Below are positions 31,175-60,522 of a DNA stretch of 64,000 nt, in pieces. The number at the start of each line of letters is the position of its first letter. Within the stretch, counting starts at the first letter, position 1. The position numbers were made by a program, and so were the translations under genes. Origin of the DNA: a virus (taxonomy: Duplodnaviria > Heunggongvirae > Uroviricota > Caudoviricetes); the IMG/VR virus record IMGVR_UViG_3300028887_000087, one strand, 5' to 3'. The notes under the pieces are model-generated. The model did not search any database. It had not been told where the DNA came from and worked only from the letters and a program-made list of their open reading frames with translations.

Positions 31175-31195
31175 ATTATTTTTTGGAGGTTGCAA

Positions 31196-34146: not shown

Positions 34147-34642
34147 AAAAGTTTTGATTGCAAATCAAAGACGTATTGAAAAAGAGGCAAGATCAGAAAG
34201 AGCTTCAATCTTTAAGTTATGGTTTTGGTTTCACAAAATAAATAAAGCTGCAAAAAAGTATGACATCAACTTTATTGCAATCAAAAGTGATGACCTACAC
34301 GGTTATTCGTATAAATATAAAAAGCCTAATGAAAACGGAGAATTAGAAGTTAAAGACTATCAGCCGTTATGTCGACTTTCTCCTGGGATATGGCAATTTC
34401 CTGAAAAGCATTATAAAGCTTTAAGGGAGAGAATTGATAATGTAAGGGAACATCCTCATATCGTGGTTTTCTTAACTATCCCTTATGTTGATGTAAATCA
34501 ATTAAAACTTGTTGGCTTTGAAAATAATGACGGAAGTGAACTTCCTCGACTTATTTACACAGCTGATAAGCCGAAATATACAAAACTTAACCCATCTTGT
34601 TATAATGATTGGGTAGTATTTACTAAAGAGGTTGTTTTATGA
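34121..34642 (+). CDS. hypothetical protein (~173 aa)
   Basis: ATG 34121 overlapping thyX end. Confidence 0.45.
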   Translation: MRKLTRADKKVLIANQRRIEKEARSERASIFKLWFWFHKINKAAKKYDINFIAIKSDDLHGYSYKYKKPNENGELEVKDYQPLCRLSPGIWQFPEKHYKALRERIDNVREHPHIVVFLTIPYVDVNQLKLVGFENNDGSELPRLIYTADKPKYTKLNPSCYNDWVVFTKEVVL

Positions 34643-35091
34643 ATGTAAGCTATGTTAAAGGTGATATCTTTACTCAGATTGGTTATGAGTTTGTCTTTGC
34701 ACTCGACTCAACTTTCAAATGTGATGTTGGCATTTGCAAACAGTTTGATGACAAATACGGAATTGAGTCAACTTTGAAAGCAATTCCTGTTGAAGCATCA
34801 AAGTGGCGCGGCAATGGTTATTGTATATCTTTTGAAAAGGGCGGAGAAAAGTTTCACGCCTTGGTTGTAAAAGCTTTACCTCAGCAAATCCCAGAGTACG
34901 TTAATATTGCTAAGGCGCTTGCAACTCTTGCTTCTGAAATTAGAGAAAGCGGTTCTGTTATTACAAGAAAGTTGGCTTTTCCACATATTTGCTGCGGCAG
35001 CTACGACAAAAGAGATTGGGACAAAATTGAAGACATTATAAAAGATGCTTTCAAGGATGTTGATGTAGAACTTTTATTTATCGAAAATTAA
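34639..35091 (+). CDS. macro-domain (ADP-ribose binding/processing) protein
   Basis: VKGDIFTQ...EFVFALDSTF...GICKQFDDKYG and KLAFPHICCGSYD match macro GDIT/AIVNAAN/IAFPAISTG pattern. Confidence 0.6.
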   Translation: MNVSYVKGDIFTQIGYEFVFALDSTFKCDVGICKQFDDKYGIESTLKAIPVEASKWRGNGYCISFEKGGEKFHALVVKALPQQIPEYVNIAKALATLASEIRESGSVITRKLAFPHICCGSYDKRDWDKIEDIIKDAFKDVDVELLFIEN

Positions 35092-37888: not shown

Positions 37889-37893
37889 CTAAA

Positions 37894-38935: not shown

Positions 38936-40417
38936 ATGACAATTAAAGATCAGTTCAAAGCAAAAGTCCTCGAGCCTATTGATGAAGCAGGCTTCAAAGC
39001 TTACTTTGTAGGCGGTTGTGTTCGTGACTTTTTGATGGGCGTTGAGCCTCACGATTACGATATTTGCACAACTGCAACCCCTGAAGAATTGCACAAAATC
39101 TTTGATAAGTTTTCAAATGTTTCAGCAAACAGTGAGCCATTCGGTGTTACGATGCCGCTGATTGAAATTGATGGAAAGCTTGAAGAAGTTGAAATTGCAA
39201 CTCTCCGCAAGGATATTACAAAAGGACGACATCCAAAAATCGAGTTTACTCGTGACATCAAAGAAGATGCAGAACGCAGAGATTTTACTGTGAATGCCCT
39301 TTACGAAGATATTGACGGTTTTATTTTTGATATGGTTGGCGGCGCTCAGGACATCAAAAACAGAACATTACGTTTTGTTGGAAATGCTCAGGACCGCATC
39401 GATGAAGACCCATTAAGAATATTCCGTTTTGTTCGTTTCCTTGCTTCAAAAGGTTTCAAGTCAGCTTACACAAAAAGAGAAGTTCTTGATTGGAATTTTT
39501 CTTTTACTGAAGTATCTGCTGAAAGACAGCTGAAAGAGTTAGAGAAAACTTTTGCAGGTAAGTTTTTATTCCCAGATACTTGGGAGTTTGTTTTAGCAGC
39601 AAGAGTTTTAACTCCGTTAGGATTAACTTCGATTATGGTTGACCTGCGAAATATTGTTCAGTCTTGGATGTGGCACGCTGAGGGTTCAACTTGGACAAAA
39701 GACGGAAAGGATTTCAAAGGCGACGAGATAACAGATTTTGACGGTTTTGTTCCTGCAACCCACGGAACTGCTTGGGACCATACACTGTTAGTTATGAAAA
39801 GAATGGCAGAGTTATCAAAAGACTTAGACGAGCACACTCGTTTCGTAATGATGATGGCTGCTTTCTTACACGACATCGGTAAGGCTCATTCAAAGCTGGG
39901 CTTAAAAACAAATACTTTCAAAATTGGAAGCAAAGAGTTTACTGAGACAATTCCTAAGGTTTCTGACCACGATGTTGTTGGCGCTCCTATTGCATACGAT
40001 ATTTGCAAAAGTATCGGTATGACAAACGATGACAGTGAGACAGTTCGCGAGCTGGTTGGCTTACATATGCGAGCTCATCAGTTAGGTGATATGAAATCAA
40101 AGAAGGCAATCTGGGAGATTACTTCAAACCCTATTTTCGATAAACTGGTTATGTTAGCAAAGGCTGATGAGTCAGCTTGTGTTAAGACAGTTGACGATGC
40201 TTGGGTTGGTATTGAGAAATCTTTAGAGAAGCCTATCATTCAGTCAGTTATCGGTAAGCCAATGCCTAAGCCAATTATTACAGGTCAGTTCCTGATTGAC
40301 AAAGGCAGAACTCCTGGGCCAAAGTTTAAGCATATCTTAGATGTTGCATTAAAGATGCAGATTGACAAGGATATGACTGATGCTGAGGCAATTTACAAAA
40401 TTGTGAAAGGATGCTAA
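38936..40417 (+). CDS. cca: CCA-adding enzyme / poly(A)-polymerase-family tRNA nucleotidyltransferase with HD domain
   Basis: GGCVRDFLMG...DYDICT head motif; RRDFTVNAL; HD motif AFLHDIGK. Confidence 0.8.
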   Translation: MTIKDQFKAKVLEPIDEAGFKAYFVGGCVRDFLMGVEPHDYDICTTATPEELHKIFDKFSNVSANSEPFGVTMPLIEIDGKLEEVEIATLRKDITKGRHPKIEFTRDIKEDAERRDFTVNALYEDIDGFIFDMVGGAQDIKNRTLRFVGNAQDRIDEDPLRIFRFVRFLASKGFKSAYTKREVLDWNFSFTEVSAERQLKELEKTFAGKFLFPDTWEFVLAARVLTPLGLTSIMVDLRNIVQSWMWHAEGSTWTKDGKDFKGDEITDFDGFVPATHGTAWDHTLLVMKRMAELSKDLDEHTRFVMMMAAFLHDIGKAHSKLGLKTNTFKIGSKEFTETIPKVSDHDVVGAPIAYDICKSIGMTNDDSETVRELVGLHMRAHQLGDMKSKKAIWEITSNPIFDKLVMLAKADESACVKTVDDAWVGIEKSLEKPIIQSVIGKPMPKPIITGQFLIDKGRTPGPKFKHILDVALKMQIDKDMTDAEAIYKIVKGC

Positions 40418-44609: not shown

Positions 44610-45194
44610 ATGAAAGAGTTTTTTGTTAGTGACTTACATATAGGACACGAAAACTGTTTAAGATTTGACAACCGTCCTTTTAAGGACCTTGCAGAACAGA
44701 ATGAAAAAATGGTTGAAATTTGGAACAAAAGAGTAAAGCCTGAAGACCACGTTTGGATGCTTGGTGATATTCTTTGGTTTGCAAATAAAGAAAATGAAGA
44801 TGTACTTAAATCTCTCAACGGCAAAAAGTATCTCGTCACAGGCAATCACGATGGACGAATGCTTAAAGTCGGACATATCAAAAATCTTTTTGAAGAAATC
44901 CACGAAGGCTATCATAAGCTTCACGACAGCAAAGGTCGTACACTTATTCTTTCACATTACCCAATTATTCAGTTTGACGGCGTAATGCGTGGAAACATCC
45001 ATCTTTACGGACACATCCACGTTAACCCAAAAGATAACGCTTTTATTGAAAAGTGGAAGAAAGAATACGAAAAAGAAATGACAGGACAGGCTGGCAATTC
45101 ATTCAAAGTGAATATGTATAATGTAGGTTTTGCTGTTCCTTATATGGAATGGGGGCCAAAAACATTAGATGAAATATTGGAGGCAAACAAATGA
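44610..45194 (+). CDS. calcineurin-like metallophosphoesterase
   Basis: SDLHIGH, WMLGDI, VTGNHD, SHYP, GHIH motifs. Confidence 0.75.
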   Translation: MKEFFVSDLHIGHENCLRFDNRPFKDLAEQNEKMVEIWNKRVKPEDHVWMLGDILWFANKENEDVLKSLNGKKYLVTGNHDGRMLKVGHIKNLFEEIHEGYHKLHDSKGRTLILSHYPIIQFDGVMRGNIHLYGHIHVNPKDNAFIEKWKKEYEKEMTGQAGNSFKVNMYNVGFAVPYMEWGPKTLDEILEANK

Positions 45195-45700
45195 AACACT
45201 TTATCGTAATTGATATGCAGAATGATTTCTGCACAGGCGCTTTGAAAAACGATGCCGCTGTTGCAATTATACCACGCATTAAAGCGGAATTGCAGGCAGC
45301 AAAGGCAGACAGCGCAAACATCATCTTTACTCGTGATACACACTTTGACGGTTATCTTGAAACAGGTGAAGGTAAGCATCTCCCAGTAAAGCACTGTCTT
45401 CAGAATACAGAAGGCTGGGAAATTGTTCCTGAACTTAAAGAAGAGATTGATGACAAAACTACAGTCATTGACAAGCTTCACTTTGGCTACGACAACTGGG
45501 GCAATTACATCAAGCCTAACGATGAAATTACAATCGTAGGAACTTGTACTGACATCTGTGTTGTAAGCAACGCCCTTGCTCTCAAAATGATTGAAGGTGT
45601 TGAAGTAAAAGTAATTGCTGATTGCTGCGCAGGCCTTACTCCTGAAAGCAACGAAGCTGCATTGACAACAATGAAAATGTGTCAGTGCGAAATTGTATAA
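45191..45700 (+). CDS. pncA: nicotinamidase / isochorismatase-family cysteine hydrolase (PncA-like)
   Basis: VIDMQNDFCTGA, FTRDTHFDG, KHC, IVGTCTDICV, VIADCCAG match PncA catalytic D/K/C and metal-site motifs. Confidence 0.8.
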   Translation: MKHFIVIDMQNDFCTGALKNDAAVAIIPRIKAELQAAKADSANIIFTRDTHFDGYLETGEGKHLPVKHCLQNTEGWEIVPELKEEIDDKTTVIDKLHFGYDNWGNYIKPNDEITIVGTCTDICVVSNALALKMIEGVEVKVIADCCAGLTPESNEAALTTMKMCQCEIV

Positions 45701-45712
45701 GAGGTACACATT

Positions 45713-45925
45713 ATGAGCATCACAACTTATGACGACGATTTTATCAACAGAAAAGTTGAACAATATCAGAAGACCCGTTATAAAAGTGATGCTCACGGTG
45801 TTTACGATAACGAAGAAGATATTCGAGCAGAAGAAGAATACGACAACGGTTTTGAACAAGGAAGAGATGAAGGCTTCTTTGATGGTTATCTTCAGTGCTT
45901 AAAAGACTTAGGAATAAGAAAATGA
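45713..45925 (+). CDS. hypothetical acidic protein (70 aa)
   Basis: AGAGG RBS. Confidence 0.45.
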   Translation: MSITTYDDDFINRKVEQYQKTRYKSDAHGVYDNEEDIRAEEEYDNGFEQGRDEGFFDGYLQCLKDLGIRK

Positions 45926-46362
45926 GCGGCGGACATTTTTATAACAACAATCTTTCAATGAATCTTGAGCAACTCGAAAACGAATTGAGATGGCAAGGTG
46001 GAGCTTTCGATGAGAAAACTCAAAAAGCTCTTCGTGAATGCCTTAAAACAATTCGCAAAGCACAGGTTTGTTTGCATCGAGTTGATTATTTGTTCTCAGG
46101 AGACGACGGAGAAGATAACTTTATAGAACGCCTTGAAGAAGACCTTAAAGAGGTTGAAGAAAAACCTATTCCTGAGTTTGGAAAGCCTTGTTGTGAAAAC
46201 TGCAAATACAACGGAAAAGTTCAAGTACGTTATAAACAGTCTTATTACTACCGTGAAGGTGAACATAGTGATTATGTTGAAACGGGTTGTGAAAAGACTG
46301 AAGAAGATTGGCCTAACGGTGAACACTGTTATGGGTTCAAACACGTGGAGGATTGGGATTGA
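45922..46362 (+). CDS. hypothetical Cys-containing protein (~146 aa)
   Basis: ATG 45922. Confidence 0.45.
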   Translation: MSGGHFYNNNLSMNLEQLENELRWQGGAFDEKTQKALRECLKTIRKAQVCLHRVDYLFSGDDGEDNFIERLEEDLKEVEEKPIPEFGKPCCENCKYNGKVQVRYKQSYYYREGEHSDYVETGCEKTEEDWPNGEHCYGFKHVEDWD

Positions 46363-46461
46363 AAAACTTCATAAAGTTTATCAAGGTATCTCTTATATTG
46401 ATTTACCTTAAAATTACAAATGCAATTGACAGATGGAAGAGAAACAGACAGGAGAAGAAAA

Positions 46462-47265
46462 ATGACTAGTTTTGATACTTTTACAAATGAAGAAAGAATG
46501 AAGGACATTCACGATAAGATTATCGTTTGGATTAAGAACTTTTTTAATGACAAGAAAGGTCCTGCAGTAATTGGTATCAGCGGCGGAAAAGATTCAACAA
46601 TCTGTGCTGCTCTTCTTACTGAAGCACTTGGCAAAGACCGTGTAATTGGTGTAATGATGCCAAACGGTGAGCAGAAGGACATCTCTGACTCAAAGAAAGT
46701 TATCAGCACTCTTGGTATTCGTGAAATTGAAATCAACATCAATGGAATGTACAAAGACATCACATCAAGAATTGGTGATTGGTACGAAGGTGATGAAATA
46801 CCAAGTCTTTTCACAACAAACACTCCTGCCCGTCTTCGTATGGTGACTCTTTACGGAATTGCTGCAGTTTACGGCGGACTTGTTTGCAACACTTGTAATA
46901 AGTCTGAAGATTATGTTGGCTACAGTACAAAATACGGCGACGCTGCAGGTGACTTCTCACTTCTCAATCGTTTGACAAAAACTGAAGTTGTTGCACTTGG
47001 CGATTATATGAAATTGCCAAATGAACTTGTACACAAAATACCTTCAGATGGTATGTGCGGCAAGAGTGATGAAGACAATATGGGCTTTACCTATGAAGCA
47101 CTTGATACATTTATCTTGACAGGACTTCCTCCAAAGTCTGAGGAAGTTTTCAGAAAGATTGTCACAATGCATCACAATCCTAACACAAAATACAAACTTA
47201 TTGATATGCCTTCTGCTCTTGAAGAATTCATCCCTGATGCTTTCGACAGAGTAGCAGAATGTTAA
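46462..47265 (+). CDS. nadE: NH3-dependent NAD+ synthetase (PP-loop ATP pyrophosphatase)
   Basis: PP-loop VIGISGGKDST; ATG 46462 after AGGAG RBS. Confidence 0.8.
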   Translation: MTSFDTFTNEERMKDIHDKIIVWIKNFFNDKKGPAVIGISGGKDSTICAALLTEALGKDRVIGVMMPNGEQKDISDSKKVISTLGIREIEININGMYKDITSRIGDWYEGDEIPSLFTTNTPARLRMVTLYGIAAVYGGLVCNTCNKSEDYVGYSTKYGDAAGDFSLLNRLTKTEVVALGDYMKLPNELVHKIPSDGMCGKSDEDNMGFTYEALDTFILTGLPPKSEEVFRKIVTMHHNPNTKYKLIDMPSALEEFIPDAFDRVAEC

Positions 47266-47268
47266 TAT
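47261..47268 (+). promoter_or_regulatory. class-2 TGTTAATAT box 6 nt before ATG 47275 (leaderless candidate)
   Basis: aatgttaatattattttATG; no SD. Confidence 0.4.
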
Positions 47269-47274
47269 TATTTT

Positions 47275-48282
47275 ATGTTGGATTTCAGATTACTGCAAGA
47301 TGTTTTACCTAAAGCTTTTGCAAATATGGGACCCGTGATTGAAATCAATTGCGAGCAACCTACACAAAGTTTTGATTGCTTCAGCGGTCATTTTGAACGA
47401 CCGTTTGGGCAAATGCAGTACCACATAAAGTTTCTTTGTGGTTATATTGAAATGGGTGAAAACGAGCTTTGGGACAAAATAAGTCCTTATATTGAAGAAG
47501 AAAGCGATGACGAGGAAGTTGTCGAAGAAAATACGGAGGTTAATATGGACGTAAATGGAATGTTTGGAAAGTTCCTTAAGCCAATCAAGCCTGGGATGGT
47601 AAGAATTGGCCTTAATGGTGAACTTGCTGTAAAAAGTGGCTCAGGCTATAAAACTTACAACGCTAAAACAAAACAGCTTGTAAATGTTCAGGATTTCTGT
47701 TTCGATATTGGGCAGGATTTGTTTATTTGTGTTCCAACTGCAAAAGTAAAAGTTGGCGACATCATTGTTCTTGATGACCCAGACGCTCCTCAGGGAGTTG
47801 CACCTAAGTGTGTTACTGCTCTCGAAGACGGCAAGACAATCAAGGTTATGGACTACAGAACAAATGAAATTCAAACAATCGTGCCTGAGCGTCATTTCTT
47901 CCTTGGAAAGATGTTCTTCTACAACAAAATCCATTCTCTTATCCCAATCGGAGACCTTGCAGGTTCAAAAGGAACTGACAAGTTCGGTAAGCTTCTTGGA
48001 AAGATGGCTTTGATGAATGCATTTACTGGTAAAGGTTTCAACTTTGGTGGCGGCAGCGGAGACAGTGAAGGTAATGGCGGACTTAACGGTTTGGCTATGA
48101 TGGCTCTTTTCGGCGGCGGACTTTTTGGCGGCGGCGGAGACGATGATTTGTTCGACTTCTCAGGTATGTTCGACCTTGAAATCCCAGACGTTGATGTAAA
48201 CGGCGATGAAACACCTGAAGCAAAGAAAGCTCGCCTCAAGGCAGAACTTGCTGCTCTTGAAGCTGAAGAAGAGAAAAAATAA
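47275..48282 (+). CDS. hypothetical protein with Gly-rich/acidic C-terminus
   Basis: GGGSGDSEGNGG...GGGLFGGGGDDDLFDF tail. Confidence 0.5.
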   Translation: MLDFRLLQDVLPKAFANMGPVIEINCEQPTQSFDCFSGHFERPFGQMQYHIKFLCGYIEMGENELWDKISPYIEEESDDEEVVEENTEVNMDVNGMFGKFLKPIKPGMVRIGLNGELAVKSGSGYKTYNAKTKQLVNVQDFCFDIGQDLFICVPTAKVKVGDIIVLDDPDAPQGVAPKCVTALEDGKTIKVMDYRTNEIQTIVPERHFFLGKMFFYNKIHSLIPIGDLAGSKGTDKFGKLLGKMALMNAFTGKGFNFGGGSGDSEGNGGLNGLAMMALFGGGLFGGGGDDDLFDFSGMFDLEIPDVDVNGDETPEAKKARLKAELAALEAEEEKK

Positions 48283-48303
48283 AATAACATAAACGCCTTC
48301 ACT

Positions 48304-48322
48304 ATAACATCACTGATGTTAT
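48304..48322 (+). repeat. 19-nt perfect palindrome ATAACATCA-C-TGATGTTAT
   Basis: seen directly; intergenic, followed by TTTTG. Confidence 0.4.
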
Positions 48323-48353
48323 TTTGAAGGTTTAAATGTTATGGAGGTACAAT

Positions 48354-49268
48354 ATGGGTGGCGGATGCTACAGTGAAAGTTCTTTCAGCAGCTATGCAAA
48401 ATCAGTTGGCGCTGTAATGGATAATTGTGAAGTTGATGGCGTAAGAACACTTCGTCTCAACAATATGAAATATTCCCAGACATCTTTACATAGCGAACTT
48501 GACCCTAAGAGTCGTGTTCGTGAATGTTGTAATACAGAGGAACATCCTAATACAATGCCTGTTATCCTTGCTCTTGATGTGACAGGTTCAATGGGTTCAG
48601 CTTGTGATGAATGCGCTGCTTCTGTTGCAAACTTGATGAAGGATCTTTATGAAAAGTTTGAAGATGTTGAAGTTTGTGTAATGGGTGTAGGTGACCTTGA
48701 ATGTGATAGCTCGCCTCTTCAGGTTTCTCAGTTTGAGTCTGATGTTCGTGTTGCAAAACAGATGCAGGAAATTTATCTTGAAAAGGGTGGTGGCGGAAAT
48801 AGTTATGAATCATATACAGCTCCTTGGTATTTTGGTCTTTACCATACAAGATTGGATTGTTTCGACAAGCAGGGAAGAAAAGGCGTTATTATTACAATGG
48901 GTGATGAGCCGCTCAATCCTGCATTAAACAGAAGAGATGTTGAGCACTTCTTGGGCGTTGGATTGGAAGAGCAGACTGAAGTAAAAACAGACAAACTTTA
49001 CAAGGCAGCTTCAAAGAAGTTTGACATCTATCACATTTCTGTCGAAGACGACAGAACAAACTATAACAGCGACAGAACTTCTTACGAAGATCAGGTTGAT
49101 AAGTCATTCAAAGATGTTATCGGAGATGACCATTACCTTGTATCTTCAGTAAACGGACTTCAGAAGAACATCGTTAAATGTATTGAAAAATCATACAAGA
49201 AACGCGAAAGACTTACTGAAGAAGCCCCTGCAAAATCAAAGAAAGATAAATCTGAGGTTGAGTGGTAA
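48354..49268 (+). CDS. von Willebrand factor A (vWA)-like protein
   Basis: MIDAS-like LDVTGSMG; GGAGG RBS before ATG 48354. Confidence 0.5.
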   Translation: MGGGCYSESSFSSYAKSVGAVMDNCEVDGVRTLRLNNMKYSQTSLHSELDPKSRVRECCNTEEHPNTMPVILALDVTGSMGSACDECAASVANLMKDLYEKFEDVEVCVMGVGDLECDSSPLQVSQFESDVRVAKQMQEIYLEKGGGGNSYESYTAPWYFGLYHTRLDCFDKQGRKGVIITMGDEPLNPALNRRDVEHFLGVGLEEQTEVKTDKLYKAASKKFDIYHISVEDDRTNYNSDRTSYEDQVDKSFKDVIGDDHYLVSSVNGLQKNIVKCIEKSYKKRERLTEEAPAKSKKDKSEVEW

Positions 49269-49696
49269 TGATTAAAGGAATTCTTTATAAGCATAAACCT
49301 AATTACGTCCGCGCCTTCTATGTTGACAAAGAAGAGGCAAAAAGAAACGAAGATTATGTTTGCAAACTTATACAAGAGTTCCTTGGTCCCGCTTGGAATG
49401 TTTATACAGTAATTACTTCAGGCGGAAGAATGTGGCATATTTATCGAGATAACTGGGAAGGCCCAGGAAGCCGCAACTATTATGAAGACTTTTACAAAAG
49501 TTGGTTGTTGGTGAAAGAAGAATCAGATGCAGAAAGTGCAGATGATGTTTGCTTTACAGATTACCCATCTTTTTACAAACTTTATGAAGATGCTAAAGAA
49601 GATGAAATCGAGTATGTTGATTTGCCACAGCTTGATGATGAAAGTCCAAAAGAAATCTTTTATACACGAGACGGCGTCAAGGAGCTTGAATGGTAA
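49262..49696 (+). CDS. hypothetical protein (144 aa)
   Basis: coupled ORF. Confidence 0.45.
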   Translation: MVMIKGILYKHKPNYVRAFYVDKEEAKRNEDYVCKLIQEFLGPAWNVYTVITSGGRMWHIYRDNWEGPGSRNYYEDFYKSWLLVKEESDAESADDVCFTDYPSFYKLYEDAKEDEIEYVDLPQLDDESPKEIFYTRDGVKELEW

Positions 49697-49992
49697 AGAA
49701 GTATCTTAAAAAGCCTATAATGGTTGAAGCACTTGAATTTGATGGCAGCAATCTTGATGAAGTTAAAAGTTTTATCGAAGAAAGAAAGCGTAAGGCTGAT
49801 AAGTTGACAATTGTAGAATCTGATCTTGCAACATACGAGTATGAATTGATTTTACCAAACGGTCAGGGCATTGGCTTTAAGAAAGGTGACTTTCTTGTTC
49901 AAGGTGTTGATGGTTCAATTTACCCAGTACATAAAAACACTTTTTGGAAAGTTTACGAAACTCTTGATGACGATAATTATATAAGTTGGTAG
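49690..49992 (+). CDS. hypothetical protein (100 aa)
   Basis: coupled ORF. Confidence 0.45.
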   Translation: MVKKYLKKPIMVEALEFDGSNLDEVKSFIEERKRKADKLTIVESDLATYEYELILPNGQGIGFKKGDFLVQGVDGSIYPVHKNTFWKVYETLDDDNYISW

Positions 49993-49995
49993 AAA

Positions 49996-51078
49996 ATGAG
50001 TATTGATGTTGTAATTGGCGCAAATTATGGAGATGAAGGCAAAGGCCTCACAGTTGCTCGTATTGCAAAGCAGTATGACCCAAGACAAACTTTTGTTATT
50101 ATGGGTAATGGCGGTGCGCAAAGAGGACACTCTGTAATACACGATGGAAAACAACATATCTTCAAACATTTCAATTCTGCAACTCCATTAGGTGTTCGAA
50201 CATTCTTCAGCCCAGACTTTATTCTTGACCCTATTCAGTTCAATGTTGAAAAAGAGGAACTTAAAAAAGTTTACGGTATTGAGCCTATAGCAATTCGTTC
50301 TGCATCTTGTAAGTGGGTGACACCTTGGGACATAATGGCAAATCAAATGTTGCAAAAAGAAAATTGGACAGGCTCTTGCGGTATGGGTATCTGGGAAACT
50401 GTACTTCGTTATCGTAACGGCGTGTATATGGACTTTGATAGTTTTGCTGCTCGTCCACACGATGAACAAGTTGAGTTTCTCAAAAAGATTCGCGACTATT
50501 ACGAAGGTGTAAGAAAGATCAAAGTCAACCCAAAATACCGAACACCTTGGTATTCTGATATTCTTATTGAGCATTTCATAAGAGACTTTATGTCAATGTT
50601 TGAATGTTGCAAAGTTAGCCCATCATTCTTAAACTTGGCTTCAAAACTCCAGTCACAACATTTTATTATCGAAAATGGACAAGGACTTCTTTTAGGCGAT
50701 AAAGGATTTGATGATAAGGAAGCAACACCTTCAAATACAGGACTCCCATCATACATCGACTTGAAAGATGCAAATGTTCATTTCGTAACACGACCTTATA
50801 TTACTCGTCACGGCTCTGATACTTTTGTTGGCCACAAACTTGATTGTGACCTTAATAAGTCAACTGAAATCAATCAGTACAACGAATGGCAGCACGACTT
50901 CTTTTACGATTACCTTGACTTGGCTGATTTGAAAAAGAGATGCGATGAAGAAGTCGCAATGCATCATATCAAAAGATATACAGTCGAAGTCACTCATTGT
51001 GATGAACTTGACCGTGAAGTTGAGTTCAAAAATATTTTTCACGGAAATTGTAATTTTTACGATTCAAATAAACTTTAA
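49996..51078 (+). CDS. adenylosuccinate synthetase (PurA)-family protein, divergent (PurZ-like candidate)
   Basis: P-loop GANYGDEGKG; NGGAQRGHS (cf. GGHNAGHT); GSCGMGIWETVLRY (cf. GTTGRGIGPAY); ENGQGLLLGD (cf. EGAQGTLLD); KLD motif. Confidence 0.7.
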   Translation: MSIDVVIGANYGDEGKGLTVARIAKQYDPRQTFVIMGNGGAQRGHSVIHDGKQHIFKHFNSATPLGVRTFFSPDFILDPIQFNVEKEELKKVYGIEPIAIRSASCKWVTPWDIMANQMLQKENWTGSCGMGIWETVLRYRNGVYMDFDSFAARPHDEQVEFLKKIRDYYEGVRKIKVNPKYRTPWYSDILIEHFIRDFMSMFECCKVSPSFLNLASKLQSQHFIIENGQGLLLGDKGFDDKEATPSNTGLPSYIDLKDANVHFVTRPYITRHGSDTFVGHKLDCDLNKSTEINQYNEWQHDFFYDYLDLADLKKRCDEEVAMHHIKRYTVEVTHCDELDREVEFKNIFHGNCNFYDSNKL

Positions 51079-51104
51079 TCAAAACCCTTTTATATTATAA
51101 ACAA
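51067..51104 (+). promoter_or_regulatory. class-1 phage promoter-like bipartite motif
   Basis: aataaacttt-N12-tttatattataaacaaATG. Confidence 0.45.
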
Positions 51105-51701
51105 ATGGAATATATAGACTATAACGTAAGAGACGCCTTTAAAACAAAGGCAACTGAAAACGGCAGAAGCACTGATTACATCAATTTATATATGCTCATA
51201 TATGAATTCAGCGATGACCGCCACGGCTACGATTGGGACAAAAGAGAAAAGTACTTTAACGACCTTCAGGATTTCGTAAAACATTTTGAAGGCGAAGGTA
51301 TTGTAGGCAGTCAAAGTGATTTAAGGGATTGGGACTTTGAAAGTCAGCAACCTTTTTATCAAAAAGGTGATATTGAGTGCGTCAGCATAATGGCTCCCGA
51401 AGATGACTTCTTTGTAAGAAACCTTCTTGATGCATTAAATCCTCTCGATTATGCAATTGAATACAGAAAAATGGCTCCTCGCAAAATTACAAAATTGCCA
51501 AAAGACGCATACGGAACTGAAGTCGAGATTGGCGATATTGTTGTTTGGGAAGGCGCTGCACACAGAGTTAAAAGTATCATTTCCGAAATAACGATAAACA
51601 AGAAAAGAATGTTTACCCGTGATTGTGTTGTTGTAAGAACAAATAACCCAAACAAGAAACTTGGCTGGGTTGAATATATTGATAACGGCAGAAAAGAATA
51701 A
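51105..51701 (+). CDS. hypothetical protein (198 aa)
   Basis: ORF after class-1 motif. Confidence 0.5.
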   Translation: MEYIDYNVRDAFKTKATENGRSTDYINLYMLIYEFSDDRHGYDWDKREKYFNDLQDFVKHFEGEGIVGSQSDLRDWDFESQQPFYQKGDIECVSIMAPEDDFFVRNLLDALNPLDYAIEYRKMAPRKITKLPKDAYGTEVEIGDIVVWEGAAHRVKSIISEITINKKRMFTRDCVVVRTNNPNKKLGWVEYIDNGRKE

Positions 51702-51717
51702 TTGGAGGTTCACTTAT

Positions 51718-53025
51718 ATGTGGTTAATCAATGGTAAATTGACTGATGATGAAAATGTCGTAATGGTGGCTTTTGACTTGAAATACCCGCCTATGGTAAA
51801 ATCACCGCTTGATACTGACCAGTACAAAAAGTCTATGAAACAGACTTATCTGCATCAGTTTAGCGATGCCCACGCAACTTGGGATTTCAAAGCCCGCAAT
51901 GTTGGTGATGGAACAAAACACGAAAAGTATACGGAAGAAGACCGTATTGAAATTAAGAAACAGATTATGGCTTACTGTGCTCTTGTTTACACAGAAGCAG
52001 AACTTGCCTTCCTTGGTGACCCAGTAAAACGTCCTTGGATTCATAACAACTTCATTGAAGTTGAACGCGATTGGCGTCCTCATCTTGAAGACTTTGAAGT
52101 TCTTGAAGATGAAAAGACAGGCCTTGCAATTCACACAAAAGGCGTTCAGTGGAAAATTTCTGATTACGAAATTCCTGTTCTTGAAATTGCTGCAGAAACA
52201 TATTACCGCAATCACTACGATTACGAACAGCTTGTAAAAGACTTCAAGGAAAAAACACTTGAAAAGATTGATTATATCAAGCGCGGCATTTTCCGCCCAG
52301 GTGCTTTCTCTGAGTTTGGTGCTCGTCGTCGTGTAAGTTTTGAACTTCAGGATTGGTTGGTAAAGACTCTTGTTGAAGCTGCAAAGGACCCAGACTTTGC
52401 AAAAAATGCAAAGTTTGTCGGAACTTCAAATATGTTCCTTGCTATGAAGTATGGAATTATGTCAGTAGGTACAATGGCTCACGAGTTTATTATGACTGTG
52501 GGACAGGGTTATCTCAAACACAATCCTGCATTCAGCAATTGGTACGCTCTTGATGCTTGGGTAAAAGAATACGGTACAATGAACGGTATCGCTCTTACAG
52601 ATACAATCGGAACTGATGTGTTCCTCCGCGACTTCAAGAAAACATTTGCAACAGTGTTCAGCGGCGTTCGTCACGACAGTGGTGACCCATACGCTTGGGG
52701 TGATAAAATCATTGCACATTACAAGAGCTTGGGTATTGACCCTATGACAAAAACTTTGATGTTCAGTGATGGTTTGAACTTGAAGAAAGCAACAGAACTT
52801 AACGAATACTTCAAAGGTAAAGCTCAGGTTGCGTTCGGTATCGGAACAGACTGGAGCGGTCCTCAGGGAATTGATGCTTTGAACATCGTATGTAAGGTTG
52901 CAATTGTAAACGGCCTTGATGTTGCAAAACTCAGTGATGCTGAAGGCAAGAATATGTGCCGCAATCCTGCAGCAATCGAACATCTTAAGAATGAGATTGC
53001 TTGGAGAATGGCAACTGACAAATAA
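51718..53025 (+). CDS. nicotinate (or nicotinamide) phosphoribosyltransferase, NAPRT/NAMPT family (PncB-like)
   Basis: FGARRRVS, GTSNMFLA, VGTMAHEF, VRHDSGDP, VAFGIGT family motifs; GGAGG RBS before ATG 51718. Confidence 0.7.
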   Translation: MWLINGKLTDDENVVMVAFDLKYPPMVKSPLDTDQYKKSMKQTYLHQFSDAHATWDFKARNVGDGTKHEKYTEEDRIEIKKQIMAYCALVYTEAELAFLGDPVKRPWIHNNFIEVERDWRPHLEDFEVLEDEKTGLAIHTKGVQWKISDYEIPVLEIAAETYYRNHYDYEQLVKDFKEKTLEKIDYIKRGIFRPGAFSEFGARRRVSFELQDWLVKTLVEAAKDPDFAKNAKFVGTSNMFLAMKYGIMSVGTMAHEFIMTVGQGYLKHNPAFSNWYALDAWVKEYGTMNGIALTDTIGTDVFLRDFKKTFATVFSGVRHDSGDPYAWGDKIIAHYKSLGIDPMTKTLMFSDGLNLKKATELNEYFKGKAQVAFGIGTDWSGPQGIDALNIVCKVAIVNGLDVAKLSDAEGKNMCRNPAAIEHLKNEIAWRMATDK

Positions 53026-53050
53026 AATAATTGGGAGCTTCGGCTCCCAA
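53024..53050 (+). terminator. GC hairpin TTGGGAGC-TTCG-GCTCCCAA overlapping next gene's RBS (attenuator/terminator-like)
   Basis: 8-bp stem, TTCG loop, followed by GGAGTTTTT. Confidence 0.35.
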
Positions 53051-53061
53051 GGAGTTTTTAA

Positions 53062-53748
53062 ATGTTTAAGAAAGAAAAGAAATATGTTGCACTTATCAGA
53101 GAAGCAACAAGTTTTGGTCCTGAAGGCCTCAACAACGAAGAAAGAATTGTAAGAGAATGGGAAATGGACGACTATGATGATGCAATCAATTATGTAAACA
53201 TAAACGGCTTTGGAGTTCAGAATTATCACAATATGTCAGTCCCATATTACCGCCTTGATGTTATTACTGAAAGAGTTGAAAAGGGCAGGGTAAAGAGAGA
53301 ATACGACCATCGTATTCGTAACTTTTCACTCAGAGAAGATACAATCGAAAAGTACAAACTTGCAAGAGTTGATGAGTGGTGTCAGAATAACAATGCTTGG
53401 ATTGCTTACAGAATGCTTTGGGACTTGAAACAGGAAGTTCCTGCTATTGAATGTCGTATGCCTAACGATACTCACTATTACACTGATTTTGAAAAACTCA
53501 AAGCTATGTACGAAGCTGTAAAGAAAGAGCAGCAGCCTTTTGCAATCAAAGGAACTGATTGGCCTTATTGGTTTAAGGTTGCAGGACAGCTTATTCCATC
53601 AACAACATCAAATTGGTTTAAGCATCTTCTTATCAAATACAACTATGTTGCAGAAGCTTCTCTTGAGCCTTACACAGGTGAAGACAAGTATGAAGAACAT
53701 ACAACCAAAAACGCAAGCGGTGTTTCCGTTTGTAGGAGTATAAGCTAA
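53062..53748 (+). CDS. hypothetical protein (228 aa)
   Basis: GGAG RBS. Confidence 0.5.
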   Translation: MFKKEKKYVALIREATSFGPEGLNNEERIVREWEMDDYDDAINYVNINGFGVQNYHNMSVPYYRLDVITERVEKGRVKREYDHRIRNFSLREDTIEKYKLARVDEWCQNNNAWIAYRMLWDLKQEVPAIECRMPNDTHYYTDFEKLKAMYEAVKKEQQPFAIKGTDWPYWFKVAGQLIPSTTSNWFKHLLIKYNYVAEASLEPYTGEDKYEEHTTKNASGVSVCRSIS

Positions 53749-54047
53749 TGCCAGCTGACAATAAACTTGAACATAAAACCGGCGAATATTATGCTTCTTT
53801 GGCAGAAAAAGACAGAGCTGAATTTCATAAACGCATTGAAAACTCTGACCTGCCAAAGGACAAAAAGATTGAATACATCGCCGTTTTTGATAAGGGTTTT
53901 GACTTAGGCTTTGCTTGTGCCAAACAGTATTGTGATAAGGATTTGCAAAACTTGACTGCAGAACTGACTTCAATGACAAAAGAAGAGTTTGACAGTTATG
54001 TAAAACTTCACAAACTTTTGACAGAAACTGAACTTTTACATCCTTAA
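53748..54047 (+). CDS. hypothetical protein (99 aa)
   Basis: TAATG coupling. Confidence 0.45.
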   Translation: MPADNKLEHKTGEYYASLAEKDRAEFHKRIENSDLPKDKKIEYIAVFDKGFDLGFACAKQYCDKDLQNLTAELTSMTKEEFDSYVKLHKLLTETELLHP

Positions 54048-54065
54048 CTTTATATTATTTTTGTA
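54030..54065 (+). promoter_or_regulatory. class-1 phage promoter-like motif (variant)
   Basis: gaactttt-N12-tttatattatttttgtATG. Confidence 0.4.
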
Positions 54066-54265
54066 TGGAAGAATATACAACAGATACAATCTACAATTTT
54101 AAGCTTACCACTTCAAAAGATAACTTAAGAAAGTTTGTTGAAGGCGGCTTGTTTACCTTCAAAACTGGCGGAAAGGAATATACCCGCAGAGTTTATTGGA
54201 GCAACAAGCAGGGCTTACATATCAACTTCCGCGGTTATGCGGTTGCTTACGAAGATTTCAATTAA
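54065..54265 (+). CDS. hypothetical protein (66 aa)
   Basis: ORF. Confidence 0.45.
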   Translation: MEEYTTDTIYNFKLTTSKDNLRKFVEGGLFTFKTGGKEYTRRVYWSNKQGLHINFRGYAVAYEDFN

Positions 54266-54276
54266 GGAGTTTATAA

Positions 54277-54681
54277 ATGAATGAACTTTTGAATGCTCTT
54301 ATCGCATCACTTGCACAGGAGCCTAAACAGGAATCTGCAGAATTCGGACCTCGCAGAAAGGTTAGCCCAGATGTAATGGAAGACCTTGCAAAAGCAATCA
54401 AAGATAAGCGTGAACTCGCAAATCAGTACTTTCAGGCAGCTCTTGCTTTCAAACAGGAAGCTGATAAACTTGAAGCTGCTCAGAAGGCTCAGAAGCTTCA
54501 CTTCGAAGAAGACCTTCGTCCAATTCCTGCAGTAAAATACAACAACAAAGTTGAGCGTTTTGCCCGTGAACAGGATGCAAACAACTATGCTGCATATCTT
54601 ATTGAAAATGGTGCAAAGCCTGAGGATATTGAGACTTTCAATATTGACATCAATATGAACCCAAGATTCTGGAGAGCTTAA
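54277..54681 (+). CDS. hypothetical protein (134 aa)
   Basis: AAGGAG RBS. Confidence 0.5.
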   Translation: MNELLNALIASLAQEPKQESAEFGPRRKVSPDVMEDLAKAIKDKRELANQYFQAALAFKQEADKLEAAQKAQKLHFEEDLRPIPAVKYNNKVERFAREQDANNYAAYLIENGAKPEDIETFNIDINMNPRFWRA

Positions 54682-54828
54682 ATGGAAAAGGCTGTTAACT
54701 GGCTTATTGAAGACGGTGCTTTTACGTGGTTTGATGGCAGCGGATTTGCTTTCATCGTATGTTGTGTTGCAATCGGCTTTTGTGTAGCCTGTGCAGTATC
54801 AAAGAAAGTACGAAGTAAGTTCTTTTAA
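54682..54828 (+). CDS. possible small membrane peptide (48 aa)
   Basis: TAAATG coupling; hydrophobic core FAFIVCCVAIGFCVACAV. Confidence 0.3.
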   Translation: MEKAVNWLIEDGAFTWFDGSGFAFIVCCVAIGFCVACAVSKKVRSKFF

Positions 54829-54836
54829 GAGGTAAT

Positions 54837-55472
54837 ATGAAAAAGATTAAAGAAGAAGAGTTGCTTAAGACTCCCGTATTCACAGTTGTCAAAAAGACTT
54901 TTGACGGCACAAAGTTCAACCCAGTAGGACTTAATTGCCACGATTGGGTTATGGTAATTATAACCGATAAACCTTGTTGGGAAGCTGATGCAAAAGCAGT
55001 TCTTATCAAACAGACTCGCTGGGGTCTTGAAGATAAAACAATTGAATTCCCTTGCGGCACAGTTGATGACGAAGACTTTTTCGCTGCTGCACTTGTAAAA
55101 AACGAAGAAGAGTTTGAAGAACTTTGGAAAAGAATAAGCGATGACGAAAAGCGGGACATCCTTGCAGACGGAAGAATGAAAGCTGCAGCCCGTGAGTTGA
55201 AAGAAGAAACAGGAATGGACGTTGTTGATATTGACTTGAAACATCTTATCACTTTCAACCCAAATCCTGCCTACTTCAACAACACAATGTCAATTTATCG
55301 CTGCGTCGTACCAAACCTTGATGAATTGATTGCAAAGAAAGGCGAACAGAATCTTGACGAAAACGAAGATTGTGAAGTAATTTACGACCGCCTTTTGGAC
55401 CATACTTCTGAAATATCAGAACACGCGATGGGTATTGCGGCACTTTTTGCTGCAGGTTATCATCTTGACTAA
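54837..55472 (+). CDS. Nudix hydrolase (ADP-ribose/NADH pyrophosphatase-like)
   Basis: Nudix box core RELKEETGM (REUxEExGU); AAGAGG RBS. Confidence 0.65.
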   Translation: MKKIKEEELLKTPVFTVVKKTFDGTKFNPVGLNCHDWVMVIITDKPCWEADAKAVLIKQTRWGLEDKTIEFPCGTVDDEDFFAAALVKNEEEFEELWKRISDDEKRDILADGRMKAAARELKEETGMDVVDIDLKHLITFNPNPAYFNNTMSIYRCVVPNLDELIAKKGEQNLDENEDCEVIYDRLLDHTSEISEHAMGIAALFAAGYHLD

Positions 55473-55483
55473 GGAGAAACAAA

Positions 55484-56062
55484 ATGGCAAGAATTGGTAT
55501 TTTTGGTGGCACATTTGACCCGTTCACTCCTGGGCACGCCGCAGTTTCTACAAAAGCTTTCGAACAGCTTAATCTTGATAAGTTGATTATCGTACCTACG
55601 ACAGTCAACTACTACCGTTCCGATAAGCGCTATCTTTTCACTTACGATGAAAAGCTCAAAATTATTCGGGACTTTATGACTGGGTTCAAATACCCAACCG
55701 AAATCGACACAATCGAGCAGGACAAAGATGGCTCTTGGAGAACAATTGATTTGGTTCAGTATTTCCGTCAGAAGTTCCCAAAAGATAAGTTGATTTTGAT
55801 TATTGGTGAAGACTCTTACAACGAGTTCAGAACTTGGACACGCTGGAGAGAAATCCTTGAATATGTTGAACTTGCAGTTGCAAATCGTTGTCAGAAATCA
55901 AACGAATGGAAGCCACAGGAAGAAGTACCTGCTCTCCCAATCAATATGGGAGACCGCTTCGAAGATTGTTCTGCAACAGTTGTAAGAAACAAACTTATTG
56001 AAGAAGTAATGGACTTGTACTTATCTGATAAAGATTGGTACGCTAATCTTGGAGGGCTTTAA
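55484..56062 (+). CDS. nadD: nicotinate/nicotinamide mononucleotide adenylyltransferase (NadD-like)
   Basis: GIFGGTFDPFTPGH (HxGH NT motif), ISAT-like C-terminal motif; AAGGAG RBS. Confidence 0.8.
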   Translation: MARIGIFGGTFDPFTPGHAAVSTKAFEQLNLDKLIIVPTTVNYYRSDKRYLFTYDEKLKIIRDFMTGFKYPTEIDTIEQDKDGSWRTIDLVQYFRQKFPKDKLILIIGEDSYNEFRTWTRWREILEYVELAVANRCQKSNEWKPQEEVPALPINMGDRFEDCSATVVRNKLIEEVMDLYLSDKDWYANLGGL

Positions 56063-56271: not shown

Positions 56272-56280
56272 AAATTGCAA

Positions 56281-56307
56281 GTCGGTCGAAAGGCCGACTA
56301 ATTTTTT
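56281..56307 (+). terminator. Rho-independent terminator (GTCGGTC-GAAAG-GCCGAC + T6)
   Basis: GC stem-loop then ATTTTTT. Confidence 0.7.
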
Positions 56308-60108: not shown

Positions 60109-60522
60109 ATGAAAGAAGAATTATTTGAAAGTATCTTAAAAGAGGCTGACGGTTTTACAATCGGAAACACAACTGTTTTACCAACGCCTGAGCCTTCTTC
60201 ATCACAGGCTAAATTATCATACACAAGACCTAACGTTGATGCAAAGCACGGCTATTATGCAATCATCAAATATATTGTAGAACACCCATTCTGCAAGAGA
60301 CGTGAAATTTTAGATAATCTTTGGCACGAGTATGTTTCTCGTGGTCAGTGGAGTTCAGTATTCAAAGCTTTGCATTACGATGGTTTCTTCCGTATTACAA
60401 ATAAGTGGGAATACATCCCAACAGGAAAGGCTGTTGACTTTATTGCAAAACACGAAGGAAGAGAGATTATAAATCCTTCTGAAGAAGAGATTGAAGATCA
60501 CGAAGCAGACGAGGAAGAATAA
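60109..60522 (+). CDS. hypothetical protein (137 aa)
   Basis: ORF. Confidence 0.45.
   Translation: MKEELFESILKEADGFTIGNTTVLPTPEPSSSQAKLSYTRPNVDAKHGYYAIIKYIVEHPFCKRREILDNLWHEYVSRGQWSSVFKALHYDGFFRITNKWEYIPTGKAVDFIAKHEGREIINPSEEEIEDHEADEEE

Follow-up and report, generated by a model that had tools for sequence, protein, structure and literature searches.

The 64,000-nucleotide stretch of DNA analyzed here (IMG/VR virus record IMGVR_UViG_3300028887_000087, Caudoviricetes; hereafter the window, meaning the whole stretch) carries, between positions 44610 and 56062, members of four enzyme families which together would convert nicotinamide to nicotinamide adenine dinucleotide (NAD+): a PncA-type nicotinamidase, a PncB-type nicotinate phosphoribosyltransferase, a NadD-type nicotinate-mononucleotide adenylyltransferase, and a single-domain NadE. 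We interpret this block as a phage-borne deamidating (Preiss-Handler type) route of NAD+ salvage, extended at its front by the nicotinamidase and accompanied by the recycling of ADP-ribose, and estimate the probability of this interpretation at about 0.7. It draws on the membership of the encoded proteins in the respective families, on their intact catalytic residues, and on a clustering of the genes that is conserved across diverged phages.

The predicted pathway and its genes

The predicted features of the block, together with a macro-domain gene located 10 kb upstream and not contiguous with it, are as follows:

44610..45194, + strand: calcineurin-type metallophosphoesterase, 194 amino acids (Pfam Metallophos_2, phrog_547)
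45191..45700, + strand: PncA-type nicotinamidase, 169 amino acids (Pfam Isochorismatase, PDB matches)
46462..47265, + strand: single-domain NH3-dependent NadE, 267 amino acids, or 281 with the start at 46420 (NAD_synthase, TIGR00552)
51718..53025, + strand: PncB-type nicotinate phosphoribosyltransferase, 435 amino acids (TIGR01514, NF003704)
53031..53050, + strand: terminator-like GC-rich hairpin, 6 nucleotides past the pncB stop (8-bp stem with 5 GC pairs; consensus match only)
54837..55472, + strand: ADP-ribose/ADP-sugar pyrophosphatase-type Nudix hydrolase, 211 amino acids (NUDIX, AlphaFold 2 fold)
55484..56062, + strand: NadD-type nicotinate-mononucleotide adenylyltransferase, 192 amino acids (CTP_transf_like, TIGR00482)
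56280..56299, + strand: terminator-like hairpin after a small open reading frame downstream of nadD (8-bp stem with 5 GC pairs, T-rich tail; consensus match only)
34639..35091, + strand: TARG1/OARD1-like macro domain, 150 amino acids (PDB 4J5R)

Each of the open reading frames (ORFs) named in an earlier, sequence-only reading of this DNA is present on the + strand at the coordinates listed above, and the assignments made there to the PncA, NAPRT/PncB, NadD, NadE, and Nudix families were upheld by profile or structure-based searches. The route proposed in the same reading, from nicotinamide through nicotinate, nicotinate mononucleotide (NaMN), and nicotinate adenine dinucleotide (NaAD) to NAD+, is supported at the level of protein families by profile searches, by comparison with the sequences of solved structures, and by fold searches.

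In the proposed scheme, PncA would hydrolyze nicotinamide to nicotinate and NH3; PncB would join nicotinate to phosphoribosyl pyrophosphate (PRPP), yielding NaMN in a reaction driven by ATP through a phosphohistidine; the NadD-type enzyme would convert NaMN and ATP to NaAD; and the single-domain NadE would form NAD+ from NaAD, ATP, and NH3, the NH3 released in the first step balancing that used in the fourth. The Nudix hydrolase would cleave ADP-ribose to AMP and ribose-5-phosphate, from which the host could remake ATP and PRPP, the co-substrates of the pathway, and both products of NAD+ glycohydrolysis would thereby be recycled. The net effect would be to maintain or rebuild the NAD+ pool of the infected cell, also after host NADase effectors have fired.

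PncB, NadD, and NadE

The phosphoribosyltransferase, previously placed in a joint NAPRT/NAMPT family, was resolved as a NAPRT (PncB) and not a NAMPT by family cut-offs, domain content, and PDB matches. It scores 342.4 bits with TIGR01514 (cut-off 269.55) and 386.8 bits with NF003704 (cut-off 379); its only Pfam matches are NAPRTase (PF04095) and NAPRTase_N (PF17767), with no NAMPT_N domain; all six of its PDB matches are NAPRTs, the best being PncB2 of P. aeruginosa (1YIR, E 2e-71); and the PHROG family for NAMPT gives it only 47 bits. The segment 'VGTMAHEF' aligns with 'LGTMAHEW' of 1YIR, and H255 is invariant in the family alignment. Judging by the PncB of Salmonella, we take H255, in the motif GTxAHE, to be the phosphorylated residue of the ATP-coupled enzyme.

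The adenylyltransferase (Pfam CTP_transf_like, 70.4 bits) carries both nucleotidyltransferase motifs, 'GGTFDPFTPGH' (with 'FTPGH' at residues 14-18) and 'SATVVR' near the C-terminus, in alignment with the NadD structure 1KAM. Its top 17 PDB matches are all NadD/NaMN adenylyltransferases (1KAM, E 2.5e-15), and phosphopantetheine adenylyltransferases appear only among the weaker matches, in agreement with the NadD-type identity proposed earlier. A further ORF at 60522-61769 (415 amino acids; phrog_3041 and phrog_395, annotated 'cytidyltransferase') was considered as a second nicotinamide-mononucleotide (NMN) adenylyltransferase and left unassigned; Pfam CTP_transf_like gives it 18.6 bits, and NCBIfam and PDB gave no matches.

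NadE scores 164.5 bits with Pfam NAD_synthase and 162.3 bits with TIGR00552 (nadE; cut-off 63.65). In the comparison with PDB sequences (2E18, E 1.6e-33; 3FIU, E 2.6e-30), its SGGxDS loop is intact, 'GISGGKDS' aligning with 'GISGGVDS', as expected of the PP-loop NadE that had been proposed. The protein has no glutaminase domain, and two-domain enzymes are matched in their synthetase part only.

Two orders of the last steps were weighed. The conventional order through NaAD is favored because the window has a NadD-type enzyme, a family that normally prefers NaMN. In the order of Francisella, NadE would instead act as an NMN synthetase, converting NaMN to NMN, and the adenylyltransferase would then convert NMN to NAD+. 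The second-best solved relative of NadE, 3FIU, matched over its full length, is the NMN synthetase of Francisella and would fit this order, as would the presence of NadE proteins 54-55% identical to that of the window in two clusters (L005 and L006) whose adenylyltransferases are of the NadR type only. Other phage cassettes use NadM-type enzymes, and according to De Ingeniis et al. (2012) the exchange of NadD for NadM is accompanied in Francisella by an NMN-synthetase function of NadE. The same study reports, however, that NadM can use both NMN and NaMN; since NadM can be bifunctional, the NadM-containing clusters do not force the Francisella order, and the best solved relative of NadE, 2E18, is a conventional archaeal NAD+ synthetase. 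We consider the Francisella order unlikely in the window and retain the route through NaAD in what follows.

The PncA-type nicotinamidase

The isochorismatase-family protein at 45191-45700 (Pfam PF00857, 98.7 bits, cut-off 27) is the weakest of the pathway enzymes by profile score. Its identification as a PncA-type nicotinamidase, already made in the sequence-only reading, is borne out by its catalytic residues and by its nearest sequence and fold matches. The best PDB sequences are the PncA proteins of P. horikoshii (1ILW, E 5.8e-17) and M. tuberculosis (3PL1), and the AlphaFold 2 model (predicted local distance difference test score, pLDDT, 83.9) has nicotinamidases as its top six Foldseek matches in the PDB, with template-modeling (TM) scores of 0.77-0.80. 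The triad D8, K95, and C123 is intact and invariant both in an alignment of 22 close relatives and in more distant PncA-like proteins; K89, which pairwise HMMER alignments had offered as the catalytic lysine, was rejected, the family alignment conserving K95 and not K89. The metal ligands D49, H51, and H68 correspond to D52, H54, and H71 of 1ILW, are invariant in the 22 close relatives, and are also kept in a bacterial homologue (L076). An Asp-His-His metal site of this kind separates nicotinamidases from other members of the isochorismatase family.

If the protein were not a nicotinamidase, the phage would possess a three-step route from nicotinate only, and the 45191-45700 product and the adjacent phosphoesterase would do something else. 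Several observations point in this direction: the NCBIfam nicotinamidase equivalog NF008623, a model of the longer, 213-position enterobacterial type, gives PncA 40 bits against a cut-off of 174; the biuret amidohydrolase model of the same collection gives 35 bits, near the nicotinamidase score; the TrtA and BiuH amidohydrolases rank closely behind the nicotinamidases in the fold search, with almost the same scores; and pairs of the phosphoesterase and an isochorismatase-family gene also occur away from any NAD+ gene (L075 and L076). On the other side stand the conserved nicotinamidase-typical ligands, the L076 homologue included, the occupation of the top two sequence and top six fold matches by nicotinamidases, and the position of the gene, which adjoins pncB in most phage cassettes. 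We regard the three-step alternative as improbable, and the block is treated below as a route beginning at nicotinamide.

Genomic context and conservation of the cluster

The predicted genes of the window are densely arranged, almost all of them on the + strand (GC content about 0.37); most of the ORFs are without a Pfam family, and many match PHROG families. The proteins of a 61.5-kb IMG/VR contig are 99% identical to those of the window. Relatives at a greater distance are single contigs of 259-313 kb, several of which sit in bacterial metagenome-assembled genomes (MAGs) from rumen or horse faeces; the relatives were binned into Clostridia and also into Bacteroidales MAGs. One of them, the 306-kb contig L016, shares the extended arrangement of genes seen in the window, with 93-99% identity for most proteins. 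From the packed genes on one strand, the PHROG matches, the IMG/VR relatives, and the single contigs of 259-313 kb, we conclude that the window appears to be part of the genome, about 300 kb in size, of a jumbo phage of the animal gut. No tRNA was found in a scan of the window, and megablast of the block against the INPHARED phages gave zero matches, indicating that no cultivated relative is present in that collection.

That the region might be bacterial or plasmid DNA carrying an ordinary cellular salvage operon was also considered, given that no capsid, terminase, or portal family was recognized among the window proteins and that relatives have been deposited inside bacterial MAGs. This explanation is hardly credible in view of the tightly packed genes on one strand, mostly without a Pfam match, the many PHROG matches, the 99% identical contig and several further relatives in IMG/VR, and the size of the related contigs, each of which runs unbroken for 259-313 kb.

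In two relatives of this predicted jumbo phage, a 259-kb contig and the 292-kb contig ERZ27286994 k141_1555038, whose PncB proteins are 81-83% identical to that of the window, the six genes form a contiguous group of about 6 kb, in the order phosphoesterase, PncA, NadE, PncB, NadD, one ORF, and Nudix, followed by a homologue of the 957-amino-acid protein of the window. The window and L016 represent a stretched version of this arrangement, with inserted unrelated ORFs that include a PurA-like gene and a gene of the phrog_2971 family. A third lineage (L003, PncB 55% identical) has PncB, Nudix, NadE, NadD, and PncA within 7 kb in a different order, and a fourth (L006, 253 kb) has PncA, PncB, and NadE together with the transporter PnuC, a kinase, and two NadR-type NMN adenylyltransferases.

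A scan of IMG/VR by alignment brought up at least 322 contigs that carry a relative of PncB. Among 63 fetched loci with at least 5 kb on both flanks of the gene, PncA, an adenylyltransferase, and NadE all lie within 6 kb of PncB in 48, usually as a compact PncA-PncB-adenylyltransferase-NadE unit, a proportion that overstates the number of independent events because many of the 63 loci are from closely related human-gut phages. Another 12 of the 63 have PncB, NadE, and Nudix only. The four-gene cassette is thus the commonest setting of phage PncB across the scan and occurs in several gene orders. While PncA, PncB, and NadE are constant, the adenylyltransferase slot beside PncB is occupied by enzymes of the NadD, NadM/archaeal, or NadR type or by a fusion of a Nudix/NrtR-like domain with NadM (genes adjoining PncB in L164, L165, L170, L174, L197, L201, L187, and L166). 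Since the genes are contiguous in the relatives and co-clustered in most of the IMG/VR phage PncB loci, their co-location in the window is not a matter of chance.

Three further observations were made on these loci. Between L016 and the window, the NadE, PurA-like, Nudix, phrog_2971, and 957-amino-acid proteins are 93-99% identical, PncB is 79% and NadD 65% identical; this mosaicism suggests that recombination may have replaced alleles of single pathway genes. The cluster of L006 (5832-11961) reads radical-SAM protein, NadR-type NMN adenylyltransferase, PnuC, AAA_33 kinase, PncA, NadR-type NMN adenylyltransferase, homing endonuclease, PncB, and NadE, and by its predicted gene content amounts to a split riboside salvage resembling NARP3 (see below) combined with the deamidated route. 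Genes for GIY-YIG homing endonucleases lie between NAD+ genes both in L003 (14382-15203) and in L006 (9222-10001).

Possible accessory proteins and the predicted fate of ADP-ribose

The assignment of the Nudix hydrolase is supported by a Pfam match above the cut-off (NUDIX, 27.9 bits, cut-off 21.1) and by invariant catalytic residues; the NudE model matches weakly. Its low sequence scores are explained by an insertion of about 30 amino acids (31 alignment columns) that splits the Nudix box GX5EX7REUXEEXGU. The catalytic helix 'RELKEETGM' is unbroken. In the family alignment, all members share R119, E120, E123, and E124, the insertion varies in length, and insertion-free members have the canonical box. 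The AlphaFold 2 model (pLDDT 94.7) has an ADP-ribose pyrophosphatase (ADPRase)-type fold with an N-terminal beta domain, and all of its 50 best Foldseek matches in the PDB are ADP-ribose/ADP-sugar pyrophosphatases (NUDT5, NudF, Mt-ADPRase, NudE). By this modeled fold, the gene most likely encodes an ADP-ribose pyrophosphatase.

The macro-domain gene at 34639-35091, silent in Pfam even at an E-value of 0.1, holds by its match to the human OARD1/TARG1 macrodomain (4J5R, E 2.2e-7) over residues 3-145, that is, over the full length. Of 80 phage loci, 19 have a macro-like ORF no more than 10 kb from PncB, as compared with 2 of 80 control loci; the 19 positive loci belong to only two clades. The protein is a possible accessory acting on ADP-ribose derivatives.

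These two proteins bear on the claim of the sequence-only reading that the block would recycle nicotinamide rather than ADP-ribose. In this claim the exclusion of ADP-ribose goes too far: with a Nudix hydrolase of ADPRase fold in the block and a macro domain of the TARG1/Poa1p class nearby, the ADP-ribose half of NAD+ is probably processed as well, without the re-ligation that marks the NARP1 pathway.

The phosphoesterase (Pfam Metallophos_2, 31.3 bits, cut-off 27; phrog_547 'phosphoesterase', E 1.6e-37) retains all motifs of the calcineurin-like type, D8xH10, GD53, GNH80, H116, and GH135xH137, invariant in an alignment of 32 family members, and the ATGA overlap of its stop with the start of pncA, noted previously, is found at 45191-45194. 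It lies directly upstream of PncA in the relatives L002 and L011 as well, and its family has at least 522 relatives in IMG/VR. Four of the six phosphoesterase neighborhoods looked up have NAD+-type genes nearby (PncA-type/isochorismatase-family, NAMPT-like, NadE). Among 80 IMG/VR loci of the family, a PncA-like gene is near in 12-13, genes of tRNA repair (Thg1, RlaP, CCA-adding enzyme) in about 24, which form one redundant clade, and neither in about 40. The association with NAD+ genes is suggestive of a dedicated NAD+ accessory, and participation in RNA end-healing is an equally good guess.

Homologues of the phosphoesterase were also seen in other settings. On a bacterial chromosome (L076, 4439-5582; GCA_949840885.1), one lies directly downstream of a PncA-type gene beside infC-rpmI-rplT, with no other NAD+ genes nearby, which hints that the PncA-type protein and the phosphoesterase may form a two-enzyme module. 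In the phage contigs L081 (1-1546) and L082 (1-3632), NARP1-like genes for PRPS-like and NAMPT-like proteins lie at most 4 kb from a phosphoesterase homologue, and L082 also encodes a 373-amino-acid NAD_synthase protein. Separately, in the window itself, the gene at 38936-40417, some 4 kb upstream of the block, encodes a protein of 493 amino acids in which a CCA-adding/poly(A)-polymerase head is joined to an HD domain (phrog_2244, tRNA nucleotidyltransferase).

Strength of the pathway assignment and possible roles

Several points weigh against the proposed pathway, in addition to the equivalog score and the amidohydrolase neighbors of PncA described above. The NadD model TIGR00482 gives 105.3 bits, just below its cut-off of 112.45, and the other NadD models also remain below theirs. 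The pathway genes are spread over 11.5 kb; they are separated by about 15 ORFs of other kinds, and the block contains terminator-like hairpins, which makes co-expression of the pathway genes less than certain. The window yielded no PRPP synthetase, and the supply of PRPP would accordingly be left to the host. The assignments rest on sequences and models, the activities of the block proteins being predicted, and the role against NADase immunity is one that we infer. With regard to transcription signals, terminator-like sites number 18 in the region as compared with 9.5 +/- 3.3 in shuffled sequences, and a scan for sigma-70-type promoters gave 33 sites as compared with 34 +/- 5.6; the promoter-like sites being at chance level, no operon structure can be derived from them.

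Many bacterial anti-phage systems act by depletion of NAD+, and the pathway could serve to withstand them. The same biochemistry could also constitute a general auxiliary metabolic module, supplying NAD+ to a large phage or in a host deficient in nicotinamide/nicotinate salvage without any relation to NADases, which we consider a serious contender, somewhat short of evenly probable. According to Li et al. (2024), the NAD+ pathways of phage and host are often complementary, and many of the NAD+-synthesizing jumbo phages described there encode NAD+ consumers such as an NAD-dependent ligase. The jumbo phage PA5oct raises the expression of the host pncA-pncB1-nadE operon in ordinary infection, and the cassette is of very wide occurrence among gut phages. 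In the window, however, the ORFs yielded neither an NAD+-dependent ligase nor any other obvious consumer of NAD+, and the two accessories, ADP-ribose pyrophosphatase and macro domain, speak for the products of NAD+ cleavage as inputs. General supply and counter-defence are mutually compatible, and the salvage pathway proposed here could serve both.

Other genes of the window

Two of the ORFs inserted in the block could be related to known families. The gene at 49996-51078 (360 amino acids) encodes a divergent adenylosuccinate-synthetase-like (PurA-like) protein that has kept the GDEGKG loop; it scores 52 bits with Pfam Adenylsucc_synt, 100 bits with phrog_1211 (annotated as PurZ type), and 19 bits with the NCBIfam PurZ model, and its PDB matches cover the N-terminal part of PurA only. 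Since the compact clusters of the relatives lack this gene, its inclusion in the pathway was rejected. The gene at 48336-49268 encodes a 310-amino-acid protein of phrog_2971, a homologue of which also stands beside the PurA-like gene in L033; its 'DVTGS' motif is a candidate metal-ion-dependent adhesion site (MIDAS) of a von Willebrand factor A (vWA) domain.

Outside the block, a 574-amino-acid AAA+ ATPase (36164-37888) overlaps a GGDEF-domain protein (37879-38898; 339 amino acids, Pfam 105 bits), which may be a phage nucleotide cyclase, and the pair is kept in the 99% identical contigs L012 and L013. A protein of 546 amino acids with SPFH/Band 7 and flotillin domains is encoded at 31190-32830. 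A Pfam scan of 56 smaller ORFs between positions 1 and 36034 listed the thymidylate synthase ThyX, a C-5 cytosine DNA methylase, and a BspA-type leucine-rich-repeat protein; motif searches for the positions of the ThyX and C-5 methylase genes in the window found nothing. BspA-type repeats are also present in the 938-amino-acid ORF at 23803-26619, and the 1970-amino-acid ORF at 13202-19114 is without any match.

Comparison with known systems

The sequence-only reading had called the block a possibly undescribed variant, which is not correct for the pathway as such. Li et al. (2024; Microbiome 12:268; PMC11662467) assembled 668 gut jumbo phages and found complete pathways of the salvage or Preiss-Handler kind in 174, named 'NAD-jumbo phages', among them Kuafu_71 with a pncB-nadD-nadE cluster; phage pncA is mentioned in their Discussion. 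They propose that phage-made NAD+ supports replication and possibly counters NAD+ depletion. As in those clusters, pncB, nadD, and nadE of the window lie together, within 9.6 kb, in what appears to be a jumbo phage of the animal gut, a phage size above 200 kb being indicated by the relatives of 259-313 kb. In the passages of Li et al. that describe the cluster, the nicotinamidase first step, the ADPRase, the phosphoesterase, and the macro domain do not figure, whereas the window has all four. Relative to those passages, PncA as the usual first gene of the cassette, the three accessories, and the exchange of the adenylyltransferase are increments and not a new kind of system; the genomic observation itself is not new, and its value lies in a defined gene set with testable accessories.

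Bacterial pncA-pncB(-nadE) operons, such as pncA-pncB1-nadE of P. aeruginosa, encode the same enzymes and chemistry, and adjoining PncA-PncB pairs occur in Ruminococcus assemblies. The block differs from them in being phage-borne, in including nadD and the Nudix ADPRase, and in its PncB, which is 43-53% identical to the nearest bacterial-looking PncB proteins.

Three phage NAD+ reconstitution pathways (NARPs) have been validated: NARP1 (Adps and Namat), NARP2 (NAMPT and NMN adenylyltransferase; Osterman et al. 2024), and NARP3 (PnuC and NadR; Yan et al. 2026). None of them proceeds by the deamidated route, the papers on NARP1, NARP2, and NARP3 contain no mention of PncA, PncB, NadD, or NadE, and our literature search found no paper testing the phage deamidated route or its role in counter-defence. 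NARP2, represented by NadV and NatV of KVP40, whose enzymes are active in vitro (as cited by Li et al. 2024), starts at nicotinamide and ends at NAD+, as would the pathway of the window. It does so, however, in two amidated steps through NMN, while the window would require four steps through nicotinate, NaMN, and NaAD, without a NAMPT and with more ATP spent per NAD+. NARP3 is likewise a phage NAD+ salvage pathway, one that has been validated as counter-defence; the input of NARP3 is imported nicotinamide riboside, and that of the window would be nicotinamide or nicotinate. The window gave neither an NMN_transporter nor a NadR match, and both are present in L006.

With NARP1 the comparison turns on ADP-ribose (ADPR). 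No Pribosyl_synth or NAMPT family, to which the PRPS-like Adps and NAMPT-like Namat would correspond, was found among the scanned ORFs of the window. NARP1 reuses ADPR directly through ADPR-pyrophosphate, whereas the window would break it down to AMP and ribose-5-phosphate. The NARP1-AP variant shares with the window an accessory for ADPR derivatives, a Poa1p-like macro protein (Adpp) in the former and a TARG1-like one in the latter. Adpp is a macro-domain phosphatase that converts the ADPR-1''-phosphate made by aRES to ADPR, and by analogy one may speculate that the macro protein of the window has a similar role.

The block and its relatives are candidates for a fourth pathway, starting from the nicotinamide released by NADases. 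In its broadest form, which we put forward tentatively and hold to be appreciably short of an even chance, this proposal would make the PncA-PncB-adenylyltransferase-NadE cassette the main answer of large gut and rumen phages to NADase immunity, with free exchange of the adenylyltransferase among NadD, NadM, and NadR and with accessories that convert ADPR and ADPR-1''-phosphate to AMP and ribose-5-phosphate; the ADP-ribose pyrophosphatase would accompany some lineages, including that of the window, and the metallophosphoesterase adjoins in the window lineage. Should the fourth pathway prove to work, it would explain how large phages of the gut and rumen survive NADase defences, and its enzymes could be of use in the engineering of therapeutic phages or in the biomanufacture of NAD+ and NMN.

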